Assembly: GCA_965226485.1 (NCBI GenBank)
Contig: OZ245363.1
Span: 2,170,817 to 2,234,816, forward strand
Length of the DNA: 64,000 bases
Direction of reading: 5' to 3'
DNA from: Spirochaetaceae bacterium
GTDB taxonomy: Bacteria; Spirochaetota; Spirochaetia; DSM-2461
A program made the translations under genes and the position numbers. The notes below the pieces were generated by a model that was given only the letters and a program-made list of their open reading frames with translations, did no database searches and was not told the DNA's origin. This document shows positions 4,268-61,102 of the stretch, piece after piece. Each line of letters opens with the position of its first letter. Position 1 is the first letter of the stretch.

Positions 4268-4650
4268 GGGGCTGTGTCAGAATGCGCCTTTGGCCCGCAT
4301 GCGGCGTTGGCGAAAAAACCTGAAATGCTCATGTACAACATGTACACTCCGCTTTCAGAACTTTTCGCCGCCTTGCCTGCAGACCAAATCCATCATTCTG
4401 ACCCAGCCCCTGGCCCGCATGCGGCGTTAGCGAAAAAACCTGAAATGCTCATGTACAATATGTACACTCCGCTTTCAGAACTTTTCGCCGCCTTGCCTGC
4501 AGACCAAATCCATCATTCTGACACAGCCCCTGGCCCGCATGCGGCGTTAGCGAAAAAACCTGAAATACTCATGTACAACATGTACACTCCGCTTTCAGAA
4601 CTTTTCGCCGCCTTGCCTGCAGACCAAATCCATCATTCTGACACAGCCCC
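4268..4650. mobile_element. MITE-like element with 16-bp terminal inverted repeats and three tandem 120-bp internal units
   Basis: GGGGCTGTGTCAGAAT ... ATTCTGACACAGCCCC; unit repeats at a 120-bp period; related copies at 13016, 20630, 28858, 44063, 56330. Confidence 0.85.
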
Positions 4651-17300: not shown

Positions 17301-18665
17301 GTGCACAGAGGTTTTTCAAAGCTTGGTCTGCTCCCCTCCGTGTCCTCTGTGATCTCCGTGAGATCTGAAAATGGCATGGGAGGTACAAAGTGTTTCGCAC
17401 AGAGGCACAAAGGGCTCAGAGGTTTTTAAATCTTTGCTTGCCCCCTCTCCTTTGCCTTTGTGATCTCCGAGAGAGGCAGAATTGTGCACAGAGGTTTTTC
17501 AACGCTTTTTCTGCTCCCCCTCCGTGTCCTCTGTGAACTCCGTGAGATCTAAAACGGTATGGGAGGTACAAAGTGTTTCGCACAGAGGCTCAGAGGGCAC
17601 AGAGGTTTTTAAAGCTTTGGCTGCCCCCTCCGTGTCCTTTGTGATCTCCGTGAGAAGCATAGTTTCGAACAGAGGTTTTTCAACGCTTTTTCTGCTCCCC
17701 CTCCGTGTCCTCTGTGAACTCCGTGAGATCTGAAAATGGCATGGGAGGTACAGAGAGTTTCGCACGGAGGCACAGAGTACACAGAGGTTTTTTAAAGATT
17801 TGTCTGATCTCCTCTTCGTGGCCTTTGCGATCTCCGAGAGAGGCAGAATTGTGCACAGAGGTTTTTCAACGCTTTTTCTGCTCCCCCTCCGTGTCCTCTG
17901 TGAACTCCGTGAGATCTAAAACGGCTTGGGATGTATAAAAAGTTTCGCACGGAGGCACAGAGTACACAGAGGTTTTTCAATGATTTGTCTGCTTCTCTCT
18001 CCATGTTCTTTCCGTTTTCTTTGTGAACTCCGTGAGATCTGAAAATGGCATGGGAGGTACAGAGAATTTCGCACGGAGGCACAGAGTACACAGAGGTTTT
18101 TTAAAGATTTGTCTGATCTCCTCTTCGTGTCCTTTGCGATCTCCGAGAGAGGCAGAATTGTGCACAGAGGTTTTTATATCTTTGCCTGCCCCCCCTCCGT
18201 GTCCTTTGTGATCTCCGTGAGATCTGAAAACGGCGTGGGAGGTATAAAGAGTTTCGCACAGAGGCACAGAGGGCTCAGAGGTTTTTAAAGCTTTGGCTGC
18301 CCCCTCCGTGTCCTTTGTGATCTCCGTGAGAAGCATAGTTTCGAACAGAGGTTTTTCAACGCTTTTTCTGCTCCCCCTCCGTGTCCTCTGTGATCTCCGT
18401 GAGATCTGAAAATGGCATGGGAGGTACAAAGTGTTTCGCACAGAGGCACAGAGGGCTCAGAGGTTTTTAAATCTTTGCCTGCCCCCTCTCCTTTGCCTTT
18501 GTGATCTCCGAGAGAGGCAGAATTGTGCACAGAGGTTTTTCAACGCTTTTTCTGCTCCCCCTCCGTGTCCTCTGTGATCTCCGTGAGAGCTATAACGGCG
18601 TGGGAGGTACAAAGAATTTCGCACGGAGGCACGGAGTGCACGGAGGGTTTTCAAAGCTTGGTTGA
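14330..18665. repeat. Array A: mosaic tandem array of ~45 units (~70 or ~110-120 bp) built from shuffled modules
   Basis: About 45 GAGGTTTTT anchors counted by hand; recurring CTCCGTGTCCTCTGTG / CACAGAGGCACAGAG imperfect inverted pairs. Confidence 0.95.
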
Positions 18666-27111: not shown

Positions 27112-28701
27112 TCAATATCCATCAGAAAGAGTTCGGTTTATATCCTTCTTGTACAAAGTATCATACACAAATCCCCGGTTTCGCAACTCATCTTTCACCG
27201 ATTGAAGAAATGGGATATATCGCCAAAAAATACTGCGGACTTCTTTGTCCAACCGCTGAACACCTTCCACTTCCTTGGTAACCCAGAGAACATAATCGTC
27301 AAGAAACTGTAGTCTCACTTCGCCTTTGCCATTATTCTTGTCGAAATACTGAAGGTATTCACCTGTCAACCCTTCTTCCATCCAATACTGGGCCGCACTC
27401 TCCTTCGCGACATGCCATCTAAGATCGCCTAAAGCATAGATTACCGCAAGTTCAACATCTTTCGGGAACATTGGTACCGCAATTCTCCCCCGGCTCATCG
27501 CTCGTTTAGTGAATTCGAAGGGCTCCCAACAAATACCTCTGTCACCAAAACATGGCACTATGATTGTATGAGGGACGATACGCATCGTCCTTCTCTTGAA
27601 TGTTCTTTTAAATACGCTATTATCAATTTTCTCAATTTCCGCCATACAGCGTATTACATTTTCTCGCGTTGCAACACGACTGATATTCGAACACATAAAT
27701 CCCTTAGTGAGGAAGGGAAAATGGTTGCCTTGGCGGCCTATACACAGCTTGATAATTTGTCGCAAGCTAGATAACTCATCCTGAACAAGCGATGTATCAT
27801 GGATGTTGCTTTCTTCTATTTGCTCCATCTCATCTTTAATCTTATCGACCTGTCGGTTCGCATCCGTCATTTTCTCTATGCCACTGACAATCTCATTATT
27901 AAGCCTATCTAATTCCTGGAGTTGCCCTATCGCACTCTTCAAAGCTCGCTGTTGATCAGTGTCATAGGTATCTTGGATATTCGGAAAGACAGGATGTGGC
28001 CCATGAGTGAGAATCATCCGAATTCCATCCTCAAGCCTTGATTCAATACCCTCTCGCTTAAGTATTAAGGTATTAACGAGAGAAAATATTGCCTCCTTGT
28101 CCCCTTGGGCCTTATTTAATCTATTCTTCTTTCTGGATTCATTAAGTCCTTTTGAAATTCGCAATTCATCGCTTGCCAAGGGATTTACTTTGCCATCGAT
28201 AATCAGATCCATCCACTCGTCTAAATAATGAATGGGTTCATCAAACCCTTTCCCGGTGATGATCATGGCTATCATGGTTCGCTGTTCATTGTTCAATAAG
28301 GTTGGTAATAAATATGCGTAACGTAAAGCCCACCTTTTCTCAATATTACTACCTCGAAAATTTTTAGCAAGATGTTCAAAAAGAGATCCCCAACTGCCTA
28401 CCAACTGCTGTCTATATACACCCTTCTGTCTAGGATCTGTTTCTCTCAGAAATTTCTGAAGAAGGGAATGGATTTGCTGGGAAATATCTCCTCCACCAGT
28501 GAGTACTTTTGAATAAAATTCCTCCCTCAGCAATACCGGATCAGGTGTTTGCTCAAATTGATCAATTTTTGGGAATTCTTGCGCCAAAAAATTTTCAATC
28601 AAATCAGACTGATCTGTGTCGTCATTGATACTAGGCAACTCTATCTCACCTAAGGGAACATCGTTTAACAGTGCATCAAGTTCTGGATCAAGTGTACTCA
28701 T
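27112..28701 (-). CDS. Hypothetical protein (coiled-coil middle, conserved-looking C-terminal domain)
   Basis: 529-aa ORF co-oriented with leuS, normal composition; no motif recognised. Confidence 0.75.
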   Translation of the reverse strand: MSTLDPELDALLNDVPLGEIELPSINDDTDQSDLIENFLAQEFPKIDQFEQTPDPVLLREEFYSKVLTGGGDISQQIHSLLQKFLRETDPRQKGVYRQQLVGSWGSLFEHLAKNFRGSNIEKRWALRYAYLLPTLLNNEQRTMIAMIITGKGFDEPIHYLDEWMDLIIDGKVNPLASDELRISKGLNESRKKNRLNKAQGDKEAIFSLVNTLILKREGIESRLEDGIRMILTHGPHPVFPNIQDTYDTDQQRALKSAIGQLQELDRLNNEIVSGIEKMTDANRQVDKIKDEMEQIEESNIHDTSLVQDELSSLRQIIKLCIGRQGNHFPFLTKGFMCSNISRVATRENVIRCMAEIEKIDNSVFKRTFKRRTMRIVPHTIIVPCFGDRGICWEPFEFTKRAMSRGRIAVPMFPKDVELAVIYALGDLRWHVAKESAAQYWMEEGLTGEYLQYFDKNNGKGEVRLQFLDDYVLWVTKEVEGVQRLDKEVRSIFWRYIPFLQSVKDELRNRGFVYDTLYKKDINRTLSDGY

Positions 28702-28857
28702 AAATGGATTAACTTCGCCGTAATAAGAAAGATTGAAAGGAAAGGAGCCCTGTGCGTCTGTCGGACCTATGTCTCACAATTCGATTTCTGCCCTTTCTCT
28801 TCAGTCGCATGCCTCTTTCACTGCATACTCCTTCCGAGCCGCCTTTGTTCGTTTTCC

Positions 28858-28958
28858 GGGGCTGTGCCAGAATGCACCTTTGGCCCGCATGTGGCGTTGC
28901 CTTGCCTGCAAACCAAATCCGTCATTCTGACCCAGCCCCTGGATTCTGACACAGCCCC
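28858..28958 (+). mobile_element. MITE family copy with doubled right end
   Basis: GGGGCTGTGCCAGAAT...ATTCTGACCCAGCCCCTGGATTCTGACACAGCCCC. Confidence 0.8.
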
Positions 28959-29296
28959 GGGCGGGGGATGAGCCCAACGGGCCCCCTCTTCTTCGCTATC
29001 GTTTAAGCTACGCTGAAGGTTTTGCCGCCTTGTTTCAGGAATAAATCATCAGAAATCGCCTCGAACACTCAATGTCCGACAGACTCCTAGAATAAATAGT
29101 CGCTAATTCACAGAGTTCCTCATACCTGATGGTGCTATTATACACTCCGAGAGCCTTCTCCACAACTATTTTTGAAAAGATATGATTAGGGAACACTTCC
29201 CCAATGCCCTACTCTGGTAGTCTGCTAACCGGCTCATTGCCAATCGGCGGGGGGAGTAGCGATATTTCCGCTACAATTCCTTGTGCCTATGTCATT

Positions 29297-29669
29297 GGCT
29301 CTTTGAACTACCTTATGGAATAAGATGGAAATAAAGTACTATTTGAAAATGGATGCTAGAGAGCCATATCAGCAAATACATGGAATTGTTACTAGGCCCT
29401 GATCTAAGCATAGACAATGATTGTGTGCATATATATCTGGAATGGCCGCAAGGGAAGTCGGCATTTGCCCAGAATGCGGTACTGTCTGCAAAATTCATGA
29501 CGGAAGAGAAGAGCGGACGTGGAGACATTTGGATACCTGTCAATTAAAGACGTATATTCACGGTCAAATTTCCCGAGTGAAATGTCCTGAATATAAAACC
29601 AAGACGATGAATATTCCATGGGCAAAAGAGACAAGCCGATTCACAGCACAGTTTCAAGCAGTGGCAATT
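29297..29669 (+). pseudogene. ISL3-family remnant (left end plus frameshifted, truncated transposase N-terminus)
   Basis: GGCTCT end; CPECG...HDGREERTWRHLDTCQ...IPWA..SRFT (zf-ISL3 type) split over frames. Confidence 0.8.
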
Positions 29670-29775
29670 GTCCTTATTCCTTCAATACAGAGGAATAAGA
29701 ACAATAATTATGTACAGTCGTTAAATATCATTAGACAAATAAAGCATTACAAATACAATTAACAAAAGGACGCTG

Positions 29776-30716
29776 ATGAAAACAATAGTAGATGACCAGA
29801 ATCACACACACTACAAGCTTCGACTCAGCGAGGTAGAAAAACCTGTGCCAAATGACAGTGAAGTTTTGTTGGAAGTTTTATCTACATCGCTAAATGCAGC
29901 GGACTACCGTTCAATGAAAATGGGGATAATTTCAAGGAAAAAGATAGTCGGATCTGCGGTATCAGGTAGAATAGAATCAGTTGGTAAAAACATCCAATAT
30001 TTCAAACCAGGTGATGAAGTAATCGGAGACCTTACAGATTTCGGATTTGGAGGATTAGCCGAATTCGCTGTAGCTCCTGAAAAAGCGTTCACTCACAAAC
30101 CTTCAAATGTTTCCTTTGAAGATGCTGCAACATTGCCTGTAGTAGCAATAACGGCACTGAAAGCACTGCGAGATAAAGGCAACATTCAAGATGGAAACGA
30201 TGTGTTAATTGTCGGTAGTACGGGCGGTGTTGGCAGCTATGCCTTGCAACTAGGCAAATGTTTTGGTGCAAATGTGACTGCAGTATGCAGTTCTAAAAAC
30301 ATGGAGCAAACAACTTCTTTGGGAGCAGATAAAGTAATAGACTATACAAAAAATGATTTTACAAAAAGTAGCGTTCGCTACGATCTCATTGTGGCAATCA
30401 ACGGCAATTATCCATTATTAGGTTACAGACGCATTCTACATTCAAAGGGCATATATGTTATGGTAGGCGGTACGCTTACCCAGATTTTTAAATCTATATT
30501 TTTCGGTTGGTTATTATCTTTTAGAGGAAATAAAATAAAAAATCTTTCTGCGAAATCTGATTCAAAAGACCTAGAGTACATTTCAAAACTCTTGAATGAA
30601 AATAAATAATGAAAGTCATTAATAAGCGTTACTCACTTGACAAGTCAGCAGAAGCAATGGATTATTTAAGTAAAGGACACTCGCCCGGCAAAGTGATTAT
30701 AAATGTTCAAAAATAA
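29776..30716 (+). pseudogene. NAD(P)-dependent alcohol dehydrogenase / quinone reductase (MDR family), frameshifted near the C-terminus
   Basis: SLNAAD, GSTGGVGSYALQL, LGADKVIDY; the tail KVINKRYSLDKSAEAMDYLSKGHSPGKVII is in another frame after 30609. Confidence 0.8.
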
Positions 30717-30769
30717 TAACGAATGTCCAACAAGACCTAGACTGCATTAGAACTCAACTTAACCAGAAC

Positions 30770-31026
30770 AAAAGAAGGAAAAGAAGCAGAGGAATTGTAT
30801 AATCAAGCCTTTGACAAATTCCAAAAAATATTGAATACGGGGCAATTTCCTGTAATCTTTTATGTATTTTTTCTTATAAGGGAGAAAAAGAACATGGTTT
30901 AAAATATTTGGATATTAGTCTCTCCAAAGATGAAATAATGTAGATTTTGTTCAAAAAAATGAAGATTGGAGATCCTTTCTTGAAGATAGTGATTTTATTA
31001 AGCTGATAAAACAGCATGTAAAATGA
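30770..31026 (+). pseudogene. C-terminal fragment of a TPR protein, multiply frameshifted
   Basis: GKEAEELYNQAFDKFQK / IEYGAISCNLLCIFSYKGEKEHGLKYLDISLSK / DFVQKNEDWRSFLEDSDFIKLI in successive frames. Confidence 0.5.
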
Positions 31027-31157
31027 AGCACGAAAGCACAGTATTTTGTATAAGTAATGGCAGGTAAAGAGGCAACTATTAAGATTTATAGCCTGCCAAA
31101 ACTGCATAGTGGTTTGACAGGAAACTAGTACTAGTCATATAATTTTCCGTTGAGGAT
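31026..31157 (+). repeat. attC-like site (degenerate)
   Basis: AAGCACGAAAGCAC..GTATAAGTAATGGCAGG ... CCTGCCA ... CATATAATTTTCC-GTTGAGG. Confidence 0.5.
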
Positions 31158-31176
31158 ATAAAAAAATAAAAAAACT

Positions 31177-31372
31177 GCATAACAAATCGTTGCACCTGAC
31201 ATCTTTCCGCTTTACTCAACAATGCAACTGAACTCAGCGATATGCAGAGAACTGCAATTGATGATTTTCTTGAGTAAAGGAAGCAAAAATGGTAAAAGAA
31301 AATATAAACAGTGGTTCTTATCCCTTCAATTCAGAGGTATAAGAACAATAATTATACACAGTCGTTGTATGC
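31177..31372 (+). repeat. 196-bp ORF-less attC-like unit, copy 1
   Basis: GCATAAC...GTTGTATGC; internal IRs CTTTACTCAA/TTGAGTAAAG and GTTCTTAT/ATAAGAAC; second copy 33263-33458, partial copy 29670-29728. Confidence 0.75.
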
Positions 31373-31412
31373 AATGTAAAATAACTGACAACCGTAACTT
31401 AATTGGAATAAT

Positions 31413-31784
31413 ATGAGCGGAAAAGCGGAATTTAAAAATGCGGACGAATATTTTGATGCCCAACCCGAAAATGTCAAAAAAATTCTTTTGGAATTAAAGG
31501 AATGTATTCTCAAAGCAGAACCAAATGCAACGGAACTGTTGAATTATAACATTCCTGCTTATGCTTTAGTCGAAAATGGAAAAAGGGAACAGCAGATTAT
31601 GATAGCGGGATATAAAAAACACGTTGGACTTTATCCACACCCAACGACTATGGAAAAATTCGACTCGGAATTGAAAGAATATAAACGAGCCAAAGGTTCG
31701 GTTCAGTTCCCATTAGACAAACCATTGCCGAAAGAACTGATTATCCGAATGATTAAGTATCGAATTGAACTATTAAAAGAGTAA
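31413..31784 (+). CDS. DUF1801/YdhG-like protein (cassette)
   Basis: DEYFDAQP, NYNIPAY, HVGLYP, KGSVQFPLDKPLPKELI. Confidence 0.85.
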   Translation: MSGKAEFKNADEYFDAQPENVKKILLELKECILKAEPNATELLNYNIPAYALVENGKREQQIMIAGYKKHVGLYPHPTTMEKFDSELKEYKRAKGSVQFPLDKPLPKELIIRMIKYRIELLKE

Positions 31785-31793
31785 AAAGACACT

Positions 31794-31857
31794 ACATACA
31801 ACAAAACCTATACGCAATACCCTTCGGGATAGTGCGCATAGGCAAACCGTTGGGTAC
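31794..31857 (+). repeat. attC-like site
   Basis: CATACAAC ... CCTATACGCA-loop-TGCGCATAGG ... GTTGGGTAC directly after a stop codon. Confidence 0.75.
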
Positions 31858-31876
31858 AACTATAAGAAACAAACAA

Positions 31877-32167
31877 GTGACAGAATTAGAACTGATAATT
31901 GACTTGCATAAAAATTCCGAGAAACAAAAGCCAGGTAGCGAAAATGATACGCTAAGAGCACCTGATTTATTGAATCTGCCGACTGACCAAAATTTGAAAG
32001 TGTCCGACATGGGTTGTGGTTCAGGTGGGCAGACGATTTCACTTGCCAAAAATTTGAACGGAAAAATCACGGCAGTTGACTTGTTTCCAGAGTTTTTAAA
32101 TGAAATCAATGAAAAATCACAGAAATTAGGATTGCAGATAAAATCGTTACGCTTGAAAAATCAATGA
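31877..32167 (+). pseudogene. Truncated copy of the class I SAM methyltransferase cassette
   Basis: Near-identical to 33478 onward (DMGCGSGG motif), frameshifted and cut at ~32170. Confidence 0.85.
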
Positions 32168-32224
32168 ATGAATAATCAAGATATCTGCCCGCTTTTTTTC
32201 ATGAAACTCATAGCCTCTACTGTC

Positions 32225-32378
32225 GCAAGCTACCCTGTGTATTCCTGTGACCTCATTGGCTAATTTGCCAACCAGTATTTGCCTGAGGGTAGTTATTCAT
32301 CCAGTCCTGTATTTCCCTGATTTTCTTCTTGCTGTAGCACCCTATATCGCAACCTTTGGGAATGGCTATACGTAATTT
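32225..32378 (-). pseudogene. IS30-family transposase C-terminal remnant
   Basis: Minus strand IPKGCDIGCYSKKKIREIQDWMNNYP matches the IS30 PKG...W.N..PR tail. Confidence 0.65.
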
Positions 32379-32419
32379 CTAAATCCTGCCTACTTCTGAA
32401 AATCCTCGCGGATTTTTAG

Positions 32420-32486
32420 TTTGGTGTGTACTTGCAAAGCTGAGTGCTAAACCACGCAACTACTTATAGCCGAGATCGTTTGCAAC
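32420..32486 (+). repeat. attC-like right arm
   Basis: CGCAACTACTTATAGCCGAGATC-GTTTGCAAC, similar to the right arm at 34341-34371. Confidence 0.6.
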
Positions 32487-32565
32487 ATAGTTGACCGTAC
32501 AAAGTGCAAGATAAAAATTTGAAAATATTGATTAATTTGTATCTTTCGGACTAAAATAATCTAAT

Positions 32566-32778
32566 ATGAGAACCAACGAGACAATAAAGGAGATTCAAAG
32601 ATTACCCATCCAAAAACGGATTCATGTGATTGAAAAAGCTATTCATTCGATTAGTAAACAAGAAGATGTAAACCAGATGGAAAGGGTAGCCGAAGCTTTA
32701 TATGCTGATTACAAATCCGATAAAGAATTGACTGCATTTACAAGCCTTGATTTTGAAGACTTTTATGAAGCAAGGTGA
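32566..32778 (+). CDS. Putative type II antitoxin
   Basis: 70 aa with acidic C-terminus (LTAFTSLDFEDFYE), overlapping the start of a PemK-like toxin. Confidence 0.65.
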   Translation: MRTNETIKEIQRLPIQKRIHVIEKAIHSISKQEDVNQMERVAEALYADYKSDKELTAFTSLDFEDFYEAR

Positions 32779-33110
32779 AGTTTGGCTAATAAATCTTGAT
32801 TCTACAATTGGAGCTGATATTATAAAACAAGACCTACAATAATTGTAAATGATGACTCGTTGGGTAAATTGCCTTTAAAGATCATTGTTCCGATTACGGA
32901 TTGGAAAGACAAACATGAAATTGCCCCATGGATGGTAAAAATAGAGTTATATTCGAAAAATAGGCTGACTAAAATCTCTTCTGCCGATTATTTTCAAGTT
33001 CGTTCTGTGTTACAAGAAAGATTTGTAAAAAACTGGGCAATATTTAAATGATAATAATGGATGAGATAAAGATCGGTTTATCGAGATTTTTGTCGATTAA
33101 AAATGAATAA
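32765..33110 (+). pseudogene. mazF: PemK/MazF toxin, two frameshifts
   Basis: MKQGEVWLINLDSTIGA / IIVNDDSLGKLPLKIIVPITDW...QVRSV..ERF in different frames. Confidence 0.8.
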
Positions 33111-33118
33111 ACTACGTT

Positions 33119-33251
33119 GCAGAACATGATATAGTTAATTGGCGGGCCGGTAGTATGCAAAAGTTATATACTTTTTATGTAAAGCAAATTGTAACTTGAC
33201 ACGGAAGTACTTTGAAATCGCCACCTAACCATAGGCCCATTCGTTGAGAGT
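33119..33251 (+). repeat. attC-like site
   Basis: GCAGAAC-ATGATATAGTTAATTGGCG ... CGCCACCTAACCATAGG..TTC-GTTGAGA after the toxin stop. Confidence 0.6.
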
Positions 33252-33262
33252 ATAAAAAAACT

Positions 33263-33458
33263 TTATAACAAACCGTTGCACATGACATCTTCCCGCTTTA
33301 CTCGACAATGCAGCTAAACTCAGCGATATACAGAGAACTGCAATTGATGATTTTCTTGAGTAAAAGAAGCAAAAATGGTAAAAGAAAAATATAACAGTGG
33401 TTCTTATCCCTCCAATTCAGATGTATAAGAACAATAACTATACACAGCTGTTGAGTAC
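33263..33458 (+). repeat. 196-bp ORF-less attC-like unit, copy 2
   Basis: Co-linear with 31177-31372 and the same length. Confidence 0.75.
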
Positions 33459-33477
33459 AACTATAAGAAACGAACAA

Positions 33478-34260
33478 GTGACAGAATTAGAACTAATAAT
33501 TGACTTGCATAAAAATTCCGAGAGACAAGGACCAGGCAGCGAAAATGATACGCTAAGAGCACTTGATTTATTGAATCTGCCGACTGACCAAAATTTGAAA
33601 GTGGCCGACATTGGTTGTGGTTCAGGTGGGCAGACGATTTCACTCGCCAAAAATTTGAACGGACAAATCACGGCAGTTGACTTGTTTCCAGAGTTTTTAA
33701 ATGACCTGAATGAAAAATCACAAAAGTTAGGATTTGCAGATAAAATTGTTACGCTTGAAAGATCAATGGACGACTTACCGTTCAAAAAGAATGAATTTGA
33801 CCTAATATGGTCAGAAGGTGCGATTTATAACATTGGGTTTGAAAACGGACTAAAAAAATGGAAGGACTACTTGAAAGTCGGCGGCTATTTGGCTGTGAGT
33901 GAAATCACTTGGATAACCCAATCTCGACCAAAGGAAATTGAAGAGTTTTGGAAAGCGGAATATCCTGAAATTGATACTGCTTCTAACAAAATTGGGCAAT
34001 TAGAAAATAATGGCTATTCGACTGTAGGATATTTCTATTTAAGTCAAGACAGTTGGATTGAGACCTATTATAAGCCAATGCAATCAAGGTTTAAGACTTT
34101 TCTGAAACGCAACGACAATTCAGAACTTGCAAGAAAGGTAGTTGAAGATAATCAAGCGGAAATCGAATTGTATCAAAAATTCAAAAATTATTATAGTTAT
34201 GGATTTTACATAGCGAGAAAAAATGAACAAAAGGTAGCACACAACAATGGCTGTACGTAA
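33478..34260 (+). CDS. Class I SAM-dependent methyltransferase (cassette)
   Basis: GTG start; VADIGCGSGG, FDLIWSEGAIY; stop lies inside the following attC. Confidence 0.9.
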   Translation: MTELELIIDLHKNSERQGPGSENDTLRALDLLNLPTDQNLKVADIGCGSGGQTISLAKNLNGQITAVDLFPEFLNDLNEKSQKLGFADKIVTLERSMDDLPFKKNEFDLIWSEGAIYNIGFENGLKKWKDYLKVGGYLAVSEITWITQSRPKEIEEFWKAEYPEIDTASNKIGQLENNGYSTVGYFYLSQDSWIETYYKPMQSRFKTFLKRNDNSELARKVVEDNQAEIELYQKFKNYYSYGFYIARKNEQKVAHNNGCT

Positions 34261-34371
34261 TGCAAGCGAAAGTGCTGATATGAAAGCAATTACATTAAAT
34301 AAACTAACAACTAAACGGAGGGTGAAATGCCTTGAAAGCCCGCACTACGCATGGCCGAGCCCGTTGCACAA
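34237..34371 (+). repeat. attC-like site
   Basis: GCACACAAC-AATGGCTGTACGTAATGC ... GCACTACGCATGGCCGAGCCC-GTTGCAAC. Confidence 0.7.
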
Positions 34372-34415
34372 CATTGTGCCGATAACGAAAACAAGAATTT
34401 TAAAAGTAATTCAAA

Positions 34416-34976
34416 ATGATATATATAATTAGCGGAACATCAAGGTCTGGAAAAACTCTGGCTGCTAAGAAAATGATGGAGCAGTCTGAAATTCCATATT
34501 TATCACTTGACTGGTTGATAATGGGATTTACAAACGGTATTCCTGAATATGGTATTCATGACAAATTATGGCCTAATGAAATTGCTGAAAGATTTTGGGA
34601 TTTCTTTAAAGCTATGCTTGAAAATATGATATGGTCAGAAACTGATTATATCATTGAGGGTGAGGCTGTACTCCCTGAACTTATATATGAATTATTAAAA
34701 AAGCATCCAGATAGGATTAAAGTGTGTTTCGTTGGCTATACGAATGTGAATATAAGTGAAAAGGTTGAGGATGTTTATCATTATAGTAAAGGGAGACATG
34801 ATTGGTTAACTAGCAAATCGAAAGACTATATCGAAAGGCATATAAGCAACATGATTGAATATAGTAAAAAGATAAAAAAATCTTGCAAAAAGTATGGTAT
34901 TAGATATTTTGATAATTCCAGAAAATTCACACAAGTCTTAGATGATGCAATAGAATATTTGATTAAAAAGGAATAG
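34416..34976 (+). CDS. P-loop NTPase / small-molecule kinase-like protein (cassette)
   Basis: N-terminal Walker A GTSRSGKT, IIEGEAVLP. Confidence 0.8.
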   Translation: MIYIISGTSRSGKTLAAKKMMEQSEIPYLSLDWLIMGFTNGIPEYGIHDKLWPNEIAERFWDFFKAMLENMIWSETDYIIEGEAVLPELIYELLKKHPDRIKVCFVGYTNVNISEKVEDVYHYSKGRHDWLTSKSKDYIERHISNMIEYSKKIKKSCKKYGIRYFDNSRKFTQVLDDAIEYLIKKE

Positions 34977-35106
34977 CAATGCGTAAAAAAGTAGCATCTA
35001 GCCACTTCAATGACTTTTTCAGCAAGCCCTACATTTTCCAGGGAATATGAAATTTATACTATTCTAAAAATGGCAGTTGAACTTTTTTTTTTTAGCGGGG
35101 AGCAGT

Positions 35107-35331
35107 GGGCACGCCCTGAAACCCATGCCCCGAAGCGTAATGCATCTTACGCCGGGCACGCCCAGAAATGCATAACCCGAAGCGTGATGCATCTCACGCC
35201 GGGCACGCCCAGTAATGCATCCCCCGATGCGAAATGAATCCCACGCCGGGCACGCCCTGAAACGCATCCCCCGAAGCGGAATGCATCTTACGCCGGGCAT
35301 GCCCAGAAACCCATCCCCCGAAGCGAAATGC
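35107..35331. repeat. Array B1: ~5 units of the 47-bp repeat
   Basis: Unit CGGGCACGCCCAGAAACGCATGCCCCGAAGCGGAATGCATCCCCCGC with variants. Confidence 0.9.
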
Positions 35332-35931
35332 TGTAATCTCGCAAAATATCCTAACCAATCTCCCCATGAATATCTCACACTCAGTTAACTAATTTTTCAC
35401 AACAGATAATCTAATTCTCAATCTCTCCGAACATAAAAAAAGGAGCAGGGCCCACGCAAATGCACACCTACTCCAATCTCAATCCCTCCCCAAAGGGAGG
35501 AACAATCTTGATACTTATTTGTCGGATAGATTTAGAAGAACTTAAAGACTCTGGAAAGGAATTTCCCTGGATCAACCCAGATAGCTGTCCTTGCTGTGGC
35601 GGATGTCGGCTCTGGGGCCATGGATTTGTCCTGAGATATTTCCATGGCTACACCGCAGGGTTATGGCTGAAACGGTACCGTTGTCCCGACTGCCATACTG
35701 TTCATACCTTACGTCCTGAAAAATATTCACTAGGTTTTCAGTATCCCTGGAAATGTCCAGGGTAATCACAATTCCCCATGGATAAGCCAGCCAGGGTAAT
35801 TAAGATTCCCCATACGATACAGCTGAGGGTAATCAAGATTCCCCATAAATCGGCCTCTAGGGTAATCACAATTCCCCACTCCCTTCCGTAGATCATTTAC
35901 AATACTCCTGCAACAAAACGCAGGAGTACAT

Positions 35932-37491
35932 ATGGGATACAGAAGGATGAATATTATCGATTTAAAATGCATTTACAGAAGACTACAGTCGGATCAAAGC
36001 ATAAAGACTATCAGCGAATCCGAAGGTTATGACCGAAAAACAATCAGGCATTATCGAGATGCCATGAAATCCTCCGGTCTGCTTGAATCACCTGATCCAT
36101 CGGAAGAGATCTTGGCGGAAAAGCTCTTTGAACTGCTTCCGAACAACGAACGAAGCAGCCCGATACACGATGAATTCCATCAGCACAAAGATGAGATCAT
36201 CCGGCTCACCACAAGGGAACAGGAGCCTATGAAGCTGAAGAGTGCGTTCATCGTCATCAAGCAAAAGTATGGTCTGGGGGGCAGTTACGAGAGCTTCAAA
36301 GTCTTCTCCCGCAAACATCATTTGACGGTTCCCGGGAAAAAGCAGTTCCCGCGACTGGAGTTGCCGCCGGGAGAGGAGACACAGATAGATTATGGTCGAG
36401 TCGGTTTGCATGAAGAGCCGGGAACAGGTAAGAACCGTGTCATCAATGCCTTCGCAGCCAAGCTTTCCTCCTCCAGGCTACCATTCATAGAGTTTACCTA
36501 TTTTCAGAACCAGGAATCCTTTGTCGGGAGCAATGACAATATGGTTCGTTTTTTTGGCGGAGTCACCGAATACCTGACCATTGACAACCTCAAGTCCGGT
36601 GTGATTAGAGCCGACATATACGATCCTCAGATCAACAAGGCATATGCGGAATGGGCGGAGCATCACGGTACTTTTATCAATCCCTGTATCAAGGCACACG
36701 CCAAAGGGAAGGCCAAGGTCGAAAGGATGATTCCTGAAGCCCGAGAGCTTTTTCGACGATTGAAAGAGCTTCATCCCTCCGCAACTCTCAAAGAGCTCAA
36801 TGAAGAGGCAAAGAAGTGGTGTCTGAATGAGTACGGACAGAAAAAGCATGGGACCACTGGCATCCCGCCTTATGAGGCTTTTATCGATGAAGAGAAGCCT
36901 AAGCTAAAACCTATAAATCCTATTCGCTTTGAGATCCCGGTCTGGAAATCTGCAAACGTCCATATGGATCAGTTTGTCAGTTTTGAGAAAAAGCGCTTTT
37001 CCATGCCCTTGTCCTATCGCAGAAAGATCGTGCACTGCCGACGGGCTGGCAGTCTGGTGAAGATCTATGATGAGAATTATCTCTTTATCAGGCAATACGT
37101 TACTACATCCAGGAAAGTGTACTGTACCGACGGTGATTTCCCGCCGGATCAACGTGCGATGATCAAAGGCGATTACCCGCAGTTTCTGATCGGACGGGCA
37201 GCGGCCTACGGATCTGGATCGAAACAACTTGTGGAACAGATCCTGCGGTCTCATGCATTTATAAACGCCCGTATCGCCAAGGGAATGATCACACTCTTCG
37301 AGCAGTACAAGGACCTGCCGTTGCTGCAAGATGTGTGTAGCAAGGCGGCGACCTTCAAGGTGCGCCAACCGAAGCACTTGAAGATCATGCTGGAAGATGA
37401 AAAGAAACAGAAACACCTGGTATTTGAAGTCCCTCGCTCAACGGCGGGTGAAGCCATGGTCAGAGATATTCGAGAATACATGAGCAATTAA
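35932..37491 (+). CDS. istA: IS21 transposase IstA
   Basis: GEETQIDYG, TIDNLKSGV, KGKAKVER DDE motifs. Confidence 0.95.
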   Translation: MGYRRMNIIDLKCIYRRLQSDQSIKTISESEGYDRKTIRHYRDAMKSSGLLESPDPSEEILAEKLFELLPNNERSSPIHDEFHQHKDEIIRLTTREQEPMKLKSAFIVIKQKYGLGGSYESFKVFSRKHHLTVPGKKQFPRLELPPGEETQIDYGRVGLHEEPGTGKNRVINAFAAKLSSSRLPFIEFTYFQNQESFVGSNDNMVRFFGGVTEYLTIDNLKSGVIRADIYDPQINKAYAEWAEHHGTFINPCIKAHAKGKAKVERMIPEARELFRRLKELHPSATLKELNEEAKKWCLNEYGQKKHGTTGIPPYEAFIDEEKPKLKPINPIRFEIPVWKSANVHMDQFVSFEKKRFSMPLSYRRKIVHCRRAGSLVKIYDENYLFIRQYVTTSRKVYCTDGDFPPDQRAMIKGDYPQFLIGRAAAYGSGSKQLVEQILRSHAFINARIAKGMITLFEQYKDLPLLQDVCSKAATFKVRQPKHLKIMLEDEKKQKHLVFEVPRSTAGEAMVRDIREYMSN

Positions 37492-37507
37492 CAAGAAGGA
37501 GAAAACT

Positions 37508-38275
37508 GTGAAAGAAATGCAAACACTTGAGGCCAATCTTCGTCGGTTGAGAATGCCGGGGATACTGGAGAACCTCGATCTACGGCTCCGGGAAGCTGAA
37601 GATGGCGGACTCGGTTATCTGGATTTTTTGATTCTGCTGATTCAAGATGAGGTTGTAAATCGCGATTCCAACATCCTGAGCAAACGTCTGAAAGTCGGAA
37701 GCTTGAGTCCCAGAATGACTTTTGAGAACTTTAACTACCGGTTCAATATGGCAACCATTCCGCAGCAGACCATCCGGGATCTGGCGACTTGCCGCTTTAT
37801 CAGGGACCATAGAAGTCTGGTTCTGTGCGGCCCTCCCGGAATTGGTAAGACCCACATAGCACAGGCCATCGGTCATGAGGTGTGCCGCCGGGGAGGAGAT
37901 GCCCTATTCGTCAAAACCCAGAAACTTTTAGAGTGTCTGACAGACGACTCCTACCCGAGGAGAGTGGCCCGGTTATGGAAGCAGATCAAGACAATGGACT
38001 TGCTGGTTCTCGATGATTTTGGTTTTCGACGTTATGACTCGAAAGAATCCGAGTTGCTTTATGCGCTGGCAGACGAACGTTTGGGAAGTGGTTCGACCAT
38101 CATCACATCCAACCGTCCGCCGCAAGACTGGTACGGTGTCTTTCCCGATCCGGTCATCGGCGGGGCGGTGCTGGATAGACTGGTTTCCGGTGCTATTAAG
38201 ATCATTGTCGAGGAAGCTAAGTCTTACAGGATGCATGGAGTATTCGGTGAGGGGACAGAGGGAAAAGGCTCTTGA
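37508..38275 (+). CDS. istB: IS21 helper ATPase IstB
   Basis: GPPGIGKTH, LLVLDDFG, ITSNR, AVLDRL. Confidence 0.95.
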   Translation: MKEMQTLEANLRRLRMPGILENLDLRLREAEDGGLGYLDFLILLIQDEVVNRDSNILSKRLKVGSLSPRMTFENFNYRFNMATIPQQTIRDLATCRFIRDHRSLVLCGPPGIGKTHIAQAIGHEVCRRGGDALFVKTQKLLECLTDDSYPRRVARLWKQIKTMDLLVLDDFGFRRYDSKESELLYALADERLGSGSTIITSNRPPQDWYGVFPDPVIGGAVLDRLVSGAIKIIVEEAKSYRMHGVFGEGTEGKGS

Positions 38276-38510
38276 CTTATTATAAAATCGGTTCTACGAT
38301 TTGACTACCGGAAGGGGGTGGGAATTTAAATTACCCTGGGTGGGGAATATGATTACCCTCGACACTGGAAAGAAATCCAATCTTCATTAGAACACAAGCT
38401 CAAGGGTCTCACATTCCGAATAGAGCTATCCCAGCAGTGCCAGCAGTATTGGATGAAAGCACTTCTGTTCCAACGAAAACAAGTTTCTAATTGGCCGGGG
38501 CTATGGTAGG

Positions 38511-38714
38511 ATGTTTGAAGCTCCCATTGGGCTGATCGGGATGAATGTCACTCTTCGTTATGAAAATTACGATCACATTGAGGTTTTCCTGGATGATGAA
38601 CCCAGGGGATATCTTTCCCTTCTCAACGAGCATAGCAATAGTAAAATTCAAAGAGCAACTCACTTTGAAAAGCAAAAAGGGTCTCTCTTTGAGAAGGCTG
38701 CGGGGGATGAATAA
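38511..38714 (+). pseudogene. C-terminal remnant of a Mu-like/DDE transposase (catalytic core deleted)
   Basis: FEAPIGLIGMNVTLRYENYDHIEVF resembles the Mu-transposase C-terminal beta domain; overlaps the ExeA start. Confidence 0.55.
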
Positions 38715-39385
38715 TGGAAAACCTCAGACACTTCTTTGGCTTGAAAAAAGATCCCTTTTCCCAGAATGTTGCGGTTCGGGATTTATACCCTCTGCCAGCA
38801 TTGGACCCCCTGAAACAGAGAGTCAGCTTTGCAGTACAACAAAAGGCTATCACTGTAATTACCGGTGATGTGGGAGCAGGGAAATCCACATGATCATTGA
38901 TGAGGCTCACCTGTTTAAACACAATGTTTTTGCTCAGCTACACACCCTGTTGCAGTTTGACTATGATTCCAAACCGGTTATGCCAAGTTTAGTCGCCCCC
39001 CGTGCGGGGGCGTGGATTGTTGCAGTTTGAATATGATTCCAAACCGGTTATGCCAGTTATCCTATGTGGATAGGACGGATTGATGGACCATCTGATGACC
39101 AGTGTAGCTAGGCCTTTGGCATCACGGGTTTTAGGAAAGAATCATCTGGAATCAATTAAAAGAGAAGTCATGGAGAAATACTTGAATCATCATCTTGCTT
39201 TGGCTGGTTTAGAAAAACCGATATTTGCAGAAAATGCTGTTTATGCGATTCATCAGAAATCGGGTGGCATCCTACGAAGGGCTAATTCATTGGCAAAAGT
39301 AGCTATGCTTGCTACCGCCATGGAAAGGGAAGAGTCTGTTTCTGCTGAACATGTTCGAGTCGCTGCTACAGAGCTTACCCTGTAA
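38707..39385 (+). pseudogene. ExeA-family AAA+ ATPase, internally deleted and interrupted
   Basis: GDVGAGKST fused out of frame to IIDEAH at ~38890; internal stop; C-terminus SGGILRRANSL. Confidence 0.8.
38992..39019 (+). CRISPR. Single truncated type I-C-like CRISPR repeat (not an array)
   Basis: GTCGCCCCCCGTGCGGGGGCGTGGATTG equals the first 28 nt of the common I-C repeat that ends GAAAC; no cas genes or second repeat. Confidence 0.6.
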
Positions 39386-39388
39386 TAA

Positions 39389-39424
39389 CATAATCCGGAG
39401 GGAGGGCCGGATTATGTTCTTTTT
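39389..39424 (+). terminator. Rho-independent terminator
   Basis: Perfect 10-bp IR CATAATCCGG/CCGGATTATG followed by TTCTTTTT. Confidence 0.75.
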
Positions 39425-39486
39425 GAATTGAGAAATTGTCTAACTGATCGTGAAAGGGTTTGGGTGGAATAATTTGAGAAACTACA

Positions 39487-40452
39487 CCGGGTGCACCCAA
39501 AAACGCATGCCCCGAAGCGAAATGCCTCCCCCGCCGGGCACGCCCAGAAACGCATCCCCCGAAGCGGAATGCATCTTACGCCGGGCATGCCCAGAAACCC
39601 ATCCCCCGAAGCAAAATGCATCCCCCGGCGGGCACGCCCAGAAACGCATGCCCCGAAGCGAAAGGCCTCCCCCGCCGGGCACGCCCAGAAACGCATGCCT
39701 CGAAGTGAAATGCATCCCCCGGCGGGCACGCCCAGAAACGCATGCTTCGAAGCGGAATGCATCTCCCGCCGGGTGCGCCCAGAAATGCATGCTCCGAAGC
39801 GGAATGCATCTTACGCCGGGCATGCCCAGAAACGCATGCCCCGAAGCGAAATGCCTCCCCTGCCGGGCACGCCCTGAAACGCATGCCCCGATGCGAAATG
39901 AATCTCACGCCGGGCACGCCCTGAAACGCATCCCCCGAAGCGAGATGCATCTCACGCCGGGCACGCCCTGAAATGCATGCCCCGAAGCGAAAGGCCTCCC
40001 CCGCCGGGTGCACCCAAAAACGCATGCCCCGAAGCGGAATGCATCTTACGCCGGGCATGCCCTGAAACGCATGCCCCGAAGCGAAATGCCTCCCCCGCCG
40101 AGCACGCCCAGAAACCCATCCCCCGAAGCAAAATGCATCCCCCGCCGGGCACGCCCAGAAACGCATGCTTCGAAGCGAGATGCATCTCCCGGAGGGCACG
40201 CCCAGTAATGCATGATCCGAAGCGTGATGCATCTCACGCCGGGCACGCCCAGTAATGCATGATCCGAAGCGTGATGCATCTCACGCCGGGCACGCCCAGT
40301 AATGCATCCCCCGATGCGAAATGAATCCCACGCCGGGCATGCCCAGAAACCCATCCCCCGAAGTGAAATGCATCCCCCGGCGGGCGCGCCCAGAAATGCA
40401 TGCTTCGAAGCGAGATGTATCCCCCGCCGGGCACGCCCTGATACCCATGCCC
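39487..40452. repeat. Array B2: ~20 units of the 47-bp repeat
   Basis: Same unit as B1 and B3. Confidence 0.95.
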
Positions 40453-58690: not shown

Positions 58691-61102
58691 GTGAAATGCC
58701 TCCCCTGGCGGGCACGCCCAGAAACGCATGCTTCGAAGCGGAATGTATTTCCCGGCGGGCACGCCCAGAAACGCATGCCCCGAAGTGGAATGCATCCCCC
58801 GCCGGGCACGCCCAGAAACGTATGCTTCGAAGCGGAATGCCTCCCCCGGCGGGCACGCCCAGAAACGCATGCTTCGAAGCGGAATGCCTCTTACGCCGGG
58901 CACGCCCAGAAACGCATGCTTCGAAGCGGAATGCCTCTCACGCCGGGTGCGCCCAAAAACGCATGCCCCGAAGCGTGATGCCTTCCCCGGCGGGCACGCC
59001 CAGAAACGCATGCTTCGAAGCGGAATGTATTTCCCGCCGGGCACGCCCTGAAACGCATGCTCCGAAGCGGAATGTATCTCCCGGCGGGCACGCCCAGAAA
59101 CGTATGCTTCGAAGCGGAATGCATCTTACGCCGGGTGCACCCAAAAACGCATGCCCCGAAGCGTGATGCCTTCCCCGGCGGGCACGCCCAGAAACGCATG
59201 CTTCGAAGCGGAATGTATTTCCCGCCGGGCACGCCCTGAAACGCATGCTCCGAAGCGGAATGTATCTCCCGGCGGGCACGCCCAGAAACGTATGCTTCGA
59301 AGCGGAATGCATCTTACGCCGGGTGCACCCAAAAACGCATGCCCCGAAGCGTGATGCCTTCCCCGGCGGGCACGCCCAGAAACGCATCCCCCGAAGCGGA
59401 ATGCATCCCCCGGCGGGCACGCCCAAAAACGCATGCCCCGAAGCGAAATGCATCCCCCGGCGGGCACGCCCAGAAACGCATCCCCCGAAGCGTGATGCCT
59501 CCCCCGCCGGGCACGCCCAAAAACGCATGCCCCGAAGCGGAATGCATCCCCCGGCGGGCACGCCCAAAAACGCATGCCCCGAAGCGTGATGCATCCCCCG
59601 GCGGGCACGCCCAGAAACGCATGCCCCGAAGCGAAATGCCTCCCCCGCCGGGCACGCCCAGAAACGCATGCTTCGAAGCGGAATGCCTCCCCCGCCGGGC
59701 ACGCCCAAAAACGCATGCCCCGAAGCGTGATGCATCCCCCGGCGGGCACGCCCAGAAACGCATGCTCCGAAGCGGAATGCTTCCCCCGGCGGGCGCGCCC
59801 AGAAACGCATGCCCCGAAGCGTGATGCCTCCCACACCGGGCACGCCCAGAAACGCATCCCCCGAAGCGTGATGCCTTCCCCGGCGGGCACGCCCATAAAC
59901 GCATCCCCCGAAGCGGAATGCCTCTCCCGCCGGGCACGCCCAGAAACGTATGCTTCGAAGCGGAATGCCTCCCCCGCCGGGCACGCCCAGAAACGCATGC
60001 TTCGAAGCGGAATGCCTCCCCCGCCGGGCACGCCCAGAAACGCATCCACCGAAGCGTAATGCATCTTACGCCGGGCACGCCCAGAAATGCATGCTTCGAA
60101 GCGGAATGTATCCCCCGGCGGGCGCGCCCAGAAACGCATGCCCCGAAGCGAAATGCATCCCCTGGCGGGCACGCCCAGAAACGCATGCCCCGAAGTGAAA
60201 TGCATCCCCCGGCGGGCACGCCCAGAAACGCATGCCCCGAAGCGAAATGCATCCCCCGGCGGGCACGCCCAGAAACGCATCCCCCGAAGCGTGATGCCTC
60301 CCACACCGGGCACGCCCAGAAACGCATCCCCCGAAGCGTGATGCCTTCCCCGGCGGGCACGCCCAGAAACGCATGCTTCGAAGCGGAATGTATTTCCCGC
60401 CGGGCACGCCCTGAAACGCATGCTCCGAAGCGGAATGCCTCTCCCGCCGGGTGCACCCAAAAACGCATGCCCCGAAGCGGAATGCCTCCCCCGCCGGGCA
60501 CGCCCAGAAACGCATGCTTCGAAGCGGAATGCATCCCCCGGCGGGCACGCCCAGAAACGCATCCCCCGAAGCGGAATGCATCCCCCGGCGGGCACGCCCA
60601 GAAACGCATCCCCCGAAGCGAAATGCATCCCCCGGCGGGCACGCCCAGAAACGCATGCCTCGAAGCGTGATGCATCTCCCGGCGGGCACGCCCAGAAACG
60701 CATGCTTCGAAGCGGAATGTCTCTTACGCCGGGCACGCCCAGAAACGCATGCTTCGAAGCGGAATGCCTCTTACGCCGGGCACGCCCAGAAACGCATGCC
60801 CCGAAGCGTGATGCATCCCCCGCCGGGCACGCCCAGAAACGTATGCTTCGAAGCGGAATGTATCTCCCGCCGGGCACGCCCAGAAACGCATGCCCCGAAG
60901 CGAAATGCTTCCCCCGCCGGGCACGCCCAGAAACGCATGTCCCGAAGCGGAATGCCTTCCCCGGCGGGCACGCCCAGAAACGCATGCCCCGAAGCGTGAT
61001 GCCTCTCACGCCGGGCACGCCCAGAAACGCATGCTCCGAAGCGTGATGCATCCCCCGGCGGGCACGCCCAGAAACGCATGCTCCGAAGCGTGATGCATCC
61101 CC
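58691..61102. repeat. Array B3: ~51 units of the 47-bp repeat
   Basis: Continuous 47-bp periodicity over ~2.4 kb. Confidence 0.95.

Follow-up and report, generated by a model that had tools for sequence, protein, structure and literature searches.

Spacer acquisition in type I-C CRISPR (clusters of short palindromic repeats interspaced at regular intervals) systems involves a Cas4-Cas1-Cas2 complex, a 32-bp repeat and a GAA/TTC protospacer-adjacent motif (PAM). Prespacer overhangs are cut precisely upstream of 5'-GAA-3', and the repair of the gaps left by a staggered integration into the two strands results in a direct duplication of the target (PMC6519985). Integration outside an array, forming a so-called neo-CRISPR, was reported for the type I-E system of Escherichia coli (Nivala, Shipman and Church, 2018, as cited in PMC7054753, PMC6698737 and bioRxiv 10.1101/148544). 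It was observed in cells over-producing the integrase and was proposed as an origin of new arrays, natural examples being few and circumstantial (bioRxiv 10.1101/148544). We analyzed a 64,000-nt stretch of a Spirochaetaceae bacterium (contig OZ245363.1, positions 2,170,817 to 2,234,816, the whole of which is called the window below), where a damaged ExeA-like ATPase gene of a multicopy transposable element contains, at 38948-39055, a lone truncated type I-C repeat between two copies of a 38-nt segment. This site is probably, in our judgment, the fossil of an ectopic spacer integration by a type I-C Cas4-Cas1-Cas2 complex. Among the origins listed by the original prediction, an aberrant Cas1-Cas2 integration is thus the one we favor, given the spacer-length insert, its end falling exactly at the PAM, natural array spacers of the same build, the duplicated target and a type I-C array in the host.

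The locus shares with the E. coli neo-CRISPR a spacer-sized insert in a non-CRISPR site and a target duplication of about repeat length. It differs in lying in a natural genome rather than in over-expressing cells, in involving a type I-C system with Cas4, in a prespacer that would come from an array, and in a duplication of 36-38 bp, 4-6 bp above the 32-bp repeat; moreover, it represents a single event known from sequence alone. As a natural example it would be new, the phenomenon being already known from the laboratory. Similarly, canonical type I-C adaptation (PMC6519985) shows the same repeat, the same spacer length and the same cut upstream of GAA, whereas here integration would have occurred elsewhere than in the leader-proximal repeat, and what was duplicated is no CRISPR repeat. 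The solitary repeat units called Racr, for RNA anti-CRISPR, are also lone repeats found outside arrays and within mobile elements (PMC10651486). Unlike them, the present repeat, truncated and flanked by a duplication, has no dedicated promoter, lies in a pseudogene and is not conserved from one copy of the element to another.

The insert, its repeat and the interrupted gene

The features of the site are as follows.

38503-39490, + strand: fragment of the transposable element, 5'-truncated, its right end abutting a 47-nt tandem array
38714-39385, + strand: ExeA-like (AAA_22, TIGR03015-like) ATPase pseudogene of this multicopy transposable element
38948-38985, + strand: first copy of segment X, with C at 38961, continuing the reading frame of the exeA-like Walker B segment before it (..LLQFDYDSKPVMP)
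38986-39017, + strand: insert, made of AGTTTA (38986-38991), taken as the end of a donor spacer, and bases 1-26 of the type I-C repeat (38992-39017)
38985 and 39018-39019, + strand: edges of the insert, where A38985 may belong to the insert and TG (39018-39019) is shared with repeat bases 27-28
39018-39055, + strand: second copy of segment X, with A at 39031, the base of the variant that dominates the family in the same strain

Segment X, a 38-nt sequence that reads TGTTGCAGTTTGA[C/A]TATGATTCCAAACCGGTTATGCCA, was delineated by sequence inspection and a repeat finder. Both bore out the direct repeats that had been announced, 70 nt apart from start to start and differing by a single mismatch (C at 38961, A at 39031). 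The pattern occurs at these two sites only in the 64-kb window and never in shuffled sequence, and no other repeat-insert-repeat of this geometry was found in the 64 kb, tandem arrays left out. Between the two copies lie 32 nt, AGTTTA followed by GTCGCCCCCCGTGCGGGGGCGTGGAT, so that the site reads ...cacaccc/TGTTGCAGTTTGACTATGATTCCAAACCGGTTATGCCA/agtttagtcgccccccgtgcgggggcgtggat/TGTTGCAGTTTGAATATGATTCCAAACCGGTTATGCCA/gttatcc... (X copy, insert and X copy in the middle), whereas the uninterrupted exeA segment reads ...ACACCCTGTTGCAG...GGTTATGCCAGTTATCC.... The second copy carries the reading frame on into the C-terminal portion of the ExeA-like protein (LLQFEYDSKPVMPVILCG*).

The other part of this description, AGTTTA plus 28 nt of a type I-C repeat from its first base, was equally confirmed, with 26 nt being unambiguous: the TG at 39018-39019 is at once the start of the second X copy and bases 27-28 of the repeat, which brings the match to at most 28 of 32 nt. 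The closing AAAC of the repeat is missing and TTGC stands in its place. The minus-strand sequence of the insert is (A)ATCCACGCCCCCGCACGGGGGGCGAC followed by TAAACT(T). Depending on the assignment of the shared bases, the insert would measure 32-35 nt (33-34 nt if trimmed at the PAM) and the duplication, according to the choice of boundaries, 35-38 bp (36-37 bp in the PAM-trimmed reading).

The complete repeat unit, GTCGCCCCCCGTGCGGGGGCGTGGATTGAAAC, is 32 nt long and very common. An exact-match scan of public genomes, with one genome per species, retrieved the 26-mer at more than 118 loci from many phyla, nearly all of them regular arrays with a period of 66-67 nt, and TGAAAC directly follows it in 1057 of about 1380 public copies. 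In one genome (L038), the array adjoins cas8c-cas7-cas4-cas1-cas2. Owing to these regular arrays and neighboring genes, the 26-mer belongs to a genuine type I-C CRISPR repeat. It is present once in the window, even with three mismatches allowed, so that the two or more regular copies of a CRISPR array are not found there, and bases 1-26 (at most 28) occur in place of a complete 32-nt repeat with its 3' ATTGAAAC handle. A search of Rfam over 38850-39150 gave no match to CRISPR-DR or any other family. In other genomes, 15 isolated occurrences of this repeat were also inspected and none had a flanking direct repeat, which leaves no second case among them. Two deltaproteobacterial metagenome-assembled genomes (L001 and L068, minus strand) harbor an identical lone type I-C repeat ending in ...GTGGATT and then AGGGGCC; having no flanking duplication, they are orphan repeats of another kind.

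The description of the target as a transposon gene held insofar as the gene encodes an ExeA-like ATPase of a multicopy element; the copy itself turned out to be a badly damaged fragment rather than an otherwise intact gene. Indeed, it bears three lesions besides the insert. It is 5'-truncated, since intact family copies run on upstream of 38503 with different sequence; at junction 38889/38890, between Walker A and Walker B, it has lost 205 bp; and at 39071 a CAG codon has become the nonsense codon TAG. The insert adds one more lesion to a transposon fragment that was dead already, and the cell is unlikely to be affected by it.

The other copies of the family were sought among the Logan contigs of a sample (X1) containing the same strain, as indicated by a 9.9-kb housekeeping stretch, whose sampled words were all (100%) present at a depth of about 18. 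The exeA family reaches depths of 190-270 there, that is, 10-15 copies for a single-copy depth of about 18. Family contigs from this sample, from that of a sister strain (X2) and, for one of them, from a further sample (X7) skip precisely the 70 nt, and at least 10 other element copies are without the insert; these insert-free copies are paralogues in the same strain and copies in relatives, not the same locus. A 60-mer over the 205-bp deletion junction has a depth of about 128 in the same-strain sample, corresponding to about seven copies with the deletion, and this defective derivative thus seems to have multiplied to about seven element copies. Taken together, the deletion of 205 bp and the insert of 70 bp amount to a net loss of 135 nt, which restores the frame, probably by chance.

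A candidate off-target integration by a type I-C system

Both the length and the end of the insert are those of a type I-C spacer. Among 1232 spacers from arrays with this exact repeat, 86% measure 32-35 nt, with a mode at 34 nt (33 nt, 20%; 34 nt, 43%; 35 nt, 21%), and the 32-35 nt of the insert fall in this range. Every type I-C repeat ends on its top strand with ...GTGGATT/GAA/AC and therefore has a built-in GAA/TTC PAM. The plus strand of the insert ends in ...GTGGAT(T), and GAA comes next in the repeat; as it stops directly before this Cas4 cut site, the insert has a PAM-defined end. A cut before GAA leaves ...GGATT-3', which is the end of the plus strand with its shared T, for a length of 33 nt, or 34 nt with A38985. 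Likewise, the minus-strand sequence of the insert is preceded in an array by GTTTC, which contains the TTC PAM.

Sequences of this build also occur as ordinary spacers. A metagenome scan for the repeat end followed by AATCCACGC yielded 18 matches, 17 of which lie inside type I-C arrays and represent 14 distinct spacers. The clearest is found in an array whose 18 repeats are regularly separated by 34-nt spacers (L131:1-1193, minus strand): at position 959 of the reverse complement, one of these spacers consists of bases 1-28 of its own repeat in reverse complement (28/28) plus GTGCGC, for a total of 34 nt. Another spacer (L135) resembles its own repeat minus the loop, and those of five further loci (L125, L128, L133, L134 and L127) resemble other type I-C-type repeats. 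Some natural type I-C arrays thus hold reverse-complemented type I-C repeats as spacers, taken right after the TTC of the repeat itself. This assignment is based on sequence identity (L131) and not on hairpin energy, which discriminates weakly (at most -9.9 kcal/mol for 6 of the 14 spacers vs. 18% of controls, p = 0.03). In these arrays (L131, L135, L125 and others) as in the window, a reversed repeat right after TTC is joined to about 6 nt of a neighboring spacer; the L131-type spacers are properly placed in arrays, whereas the copy in the window lies in a transposon gene. The donor spacer was not found nearby for the insert, and the same is true for L131. No description of repeat-derived spacers in type I-C arrays was found in the literature searched, which does not prove novelty.

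The host lineage possesses a type I-C array. Matching contigs to one public repeat unit (L069:228-302) recovered, in the same-strain sample, a 6009-nt contig at a depth of 18.7 that terminates with three repeats, of which two are the exact 32-nt unit, as well as 96-nt spacer contigs with depths of 16.9 and 2.8. An array with the identical type I-C repeat is therefore present at host depth, and the absence of any such repeat from the organism or its community, which would have spoken against a CRISPR origin, is not what was found. The minority spacer (2.8 vs. 17-19) corresponds to about 15% of the population and hints at a recent change of the array.

A possible trace of adaptation genes lies on a second type of contig. 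In the sister strain, an AT-rich leader-like sequence and a repeat form the end of a 12,535-nt contig at symbiont depth, and a 50-nt match (84%) to a type I-C cas4 lies about 1.8 kb upstream of this repeat, the distance being that of the canonical cas4-cas1-cas2-leader order, as in L038. The same cas4 piece occurs in the same-strain sample (depth 22.8), where a 1931-nt contig (depth 23.8) presents a lone repeat with three mismatches behind the same leader. No protein from the 3,497,169-bp host contig stood among the best 120 matches to Spirochaetia type I-C Cas1, a family too conserved and numerous to tell. Compared with L069:228-302 and L038:4097-7016, the contigs of both samples suggest that the lineage has two type I-C loci: one with the exact-repeat array, and one downstream of the cas4-like match with, in the same strain, a single three-mismatch repeat after the leader. 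The latter may be an emptied array, and beyond their last repeat the two loci look about 67% alike in sequence.

The following course of events could account for the site. A prespacer would have been released from a type I-C array, presumably the host's own, and would have comprised 27 bp of repeat and the last 6-7 bp of the preceding spacer, the repeat-side cut directly upstream of the 5'-GAA-3' (TTC) PAM giving a fragment of 33-34 bp. Its two 3'-OH ends would then have attacked both strands of the ExeA-like gene copy, 36-37 bp apart, instead of the leader-proximal repeat, the joining being performed by Cas1-Cas2. The repair of the two single-stranded gaps would have duplicated the stretch to give target copy, spacer and target copy, with exact boundaries somewhere within the 32-35 nt of the insert and the 35-38 bp of the duplication, and the C/A mismatch of the X copies may have arisen later. 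The product would be a one-spacer neo-CRISPR, most likely devoid of function today. At its PAM-side 3' end, the insert is joined to 5'-GTTGC, which agrees at four of five bases with both attack sites, GTCGC at the top and GTTTC at the bottom of the repeat; with a probability of about 3% by chance, this likeness is suggestive only.

Several observations weigh against such an integration. The duplication of 35-38 bp (36-37 bp when PAM-trimmed) exceeds the 32-bp type I-C repeat and the expected ruler. In the type I-B system of Haloarcula, the size of the duplication is set by motifs in the repeat and shifts with altered spacing (PMC4872114); by analogy, a motif-less site need not give a duplication of 32 bp. 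The target bears no convincing resemblance to a leader-repeat junction. The two X copies differ at one base and, as both the C and the A variants occur in the family, two paralogues could have been joined. The donor spacer is missing: AGTTTA next to the repeat is absent from the contigs of the same-strain sample, and none of the four spacers recovered there, nor of the 1232 public ones, ends in AGTTTA. The adaptation genes of the host are represented by the one 50-nt, 84% match to cas4; cas1 and cas2 themselves were not seen. Finally, the event is a single one, and the insert rests on the assembly, the same-strain Logan contigs being without the specific sequence of this copy and hence giving no confirmation.

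Short likenesses between target and repeat had also been considered, namely GTGGAT at 39066-39071, GGATTGA at 39077-39083 and, on the opposite strand of X, ATTCAAAC. They were dropped because matches of 6-8 nt to a 32-nt repeat are expected by chance within about 120 nt.

Other explanations for the insert

A copy-insert-copy layout also arises from a template switch during replication or repair, of the kind known as microhomology-mediated break-induced replication. The nascent exeA strand would have moved to the CRISPR array, copied about 32 nt, returned through the TG and copied X again. Such an event tolerates any lengths, so that a duplication of 36-38 bp is no problem for it; the TG is indeed shared at the right junction, and AGTTT is also found inside X, where the first five nucleotides could be a second short templated patch. 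Yet it gives no reason for the choice of a CRISPR repeat as donor out of 3.5 Mb, and explains neither the spacer length of the copied piece, nor its end exactly at the Cas4 site before GAA (PMC6519985), nor the pieces of the same type that serve as regular array spacers. We regard it as unlikely. The 70 nt might instead be an artefact of assembly or polishing, absent from the DNA of the organism. The sequence 38948-39017 occurs in none of the public contig sets checked, that of the same strain included; its exact left junction was not found in the metagenome contig collection, and the locus lies amid multicopy elements, where assemblies are least reliable. RNA reads from a related host species yielded nothing here. 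However, Logan contigs do not retain the rare variants of multicopy families, and those of the same strain are likewise without the other variants specific to this pseudogene copy, so that their silence on the insert is uninformative and even expected of a rare variant in a family of 10-15 copies. The contig, moreover, was most probably built from long reads, as its 3,497,169 bp cross kilobase-scale tandem arrays. A shortcut in a k-mer graph requires the full repeat, whereas 28 of 32 nt are present and the junctions are unique; for the same reasons, the earlier idea of a chimera formed through a self-targeting spacer is unlikely to hold, 28 nt of repeat being unable to share a 31-mer with an array. 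Nor would an artefact be expected to mimic a PAM-trimmed prespacer, and this origin appears improbable to us, even more so than a template switch.

CRISPR immunity against the element itself has also been invoked, in that recombination or gene conversion between spacer and protospacer would have copied part of an array into exeA and left a scar disabling a self-targeted element. A multicopy mobile element is a plausible CRISPR target, the host has a type I-C array, and the X copies carry different family variants, as if one of them derived from a spacer. Against this stands the lack of a TTC PAM beside X on either strand, ACACCC preceding it on the plus strand and GATAAC on the minus strand. 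The four spacers that the host sample yielded, an incomplete set, include no match to X, and neither do the 1232 public spacers associated with this repeat. A copy derived from an array would bring the whole 32-nt repeat next to the spacer, whereas no full repeat stands at the junctions, which show AGTTTA and 26-28 nt. In addition, at least 10 other copies were left untouched, and this one also has the 205-bp deletion common to about seven copies, the 5' truncation and the stop codon. Such a scar is consequently very improbable. Hardly any credence can be given to a solitary repeat acting as a transposon-borne Racr that blunts type I-C immunity. It is true that lone CRISPR-like repeats are found in mobile elements, that the type I-C RacrIC1 is active (PMC10651486) and that the hairpin part of the repeat is intact here. 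But the repeat sits in the coding sequence of one broken copy, the other copies (at least 10) being without it; its last four nucleotides are missing, the upstream promoter-like matches are weak (9/12), and a Racr gene has no need of the target duplication that flanks it.

The surrounding chromosome and the significance of the site

The window belongs to a bacterial chromosome, as it contains leuS, glmS, ilvC, fatty-acid synthesis genes and transporters, and the named relatives of its GlmS are Spirochaetaceae, including symbionts of marine invertebrates. No cas genes were detected in the 64 kb. A further mobile element lies just upstream of the interrupted gene.

35747-38364, + strand: IS21-family element, with istA at 35932-37491 (519 aa) and istB at 37508-38275 (255 aa)

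Contigs of the same and of the sister strain present the corresponding empty site, joining 35746 to 38365 and skipping 2618 bp, and the seven bases shared there are a likely target duplication. The interrupted element (35332-35746 and 38365-38501, with a DUF6431 open reading frame at 35460-35765) is itself repeated, at a depth of about 61. The IS21 element having landed in a second repeated element just upstream, the locus can be called a graveyard of mobile elements.

G+C-rich tandem arrays of a 47-nt unit, 83-86% alike, flank this transposon cluster at 35107-35331 (5 copies) and 39441-40452 (about 20 copies) and recur 19 kb away at 58695-61102 (about 51 copies). They reach depths of 900-1400 in the same-strain sample, vs. 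18 for single-copy sequence, and the long open reading frames that cover them are probably spurious. Two other tandem repeats are found in the window: a 4.3-kb array at 14372-18659 with periodicities of 121, 184 and 369 nt, rich in GCACGGAG/GCACAGAG motifs and with a strong AT skew, and a separate 120-nt repeat in three copies at 4291-4650. The region 28000-36000, which adjoins the transposon cluster, has a G+C content of 0.35-0.42, vs. about 0.48 elsewhere, and a positive AT skew. It encodes a methyltransferase (33397-34260) and unannotated open reading frames, and may be a horizontally acquired island.

Beyond the site itself, it is quite possible, though still doubtful, that a type I-C integrase gave birth to a one-spacer neo-CRISPR of which the insert is the natural record, and that type I-C arrays are themselves sources of prespacers through their built-in PAM, since every type I-C repeat has a GAA/TTC PAM at its 3' end. 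A clean natural type I-C scar would offer a recognizable donor, a PAM-defined end and a measurable stagger. If this is true, repeat-derived spacers land not only in arrays (L131 and others) but on rare occasions also at other chromosomal sites. The type I-C-repeat spacers found in type I-C arrays may be of interest for research on CRISPR autoimmunity and array turnover. Indeed, each unit of a matching array should be a target for a repeat-derived spacer, which could matter for autoimmunity, for the decay of arrays and for conflicts between elements that carry type I-C arrays.

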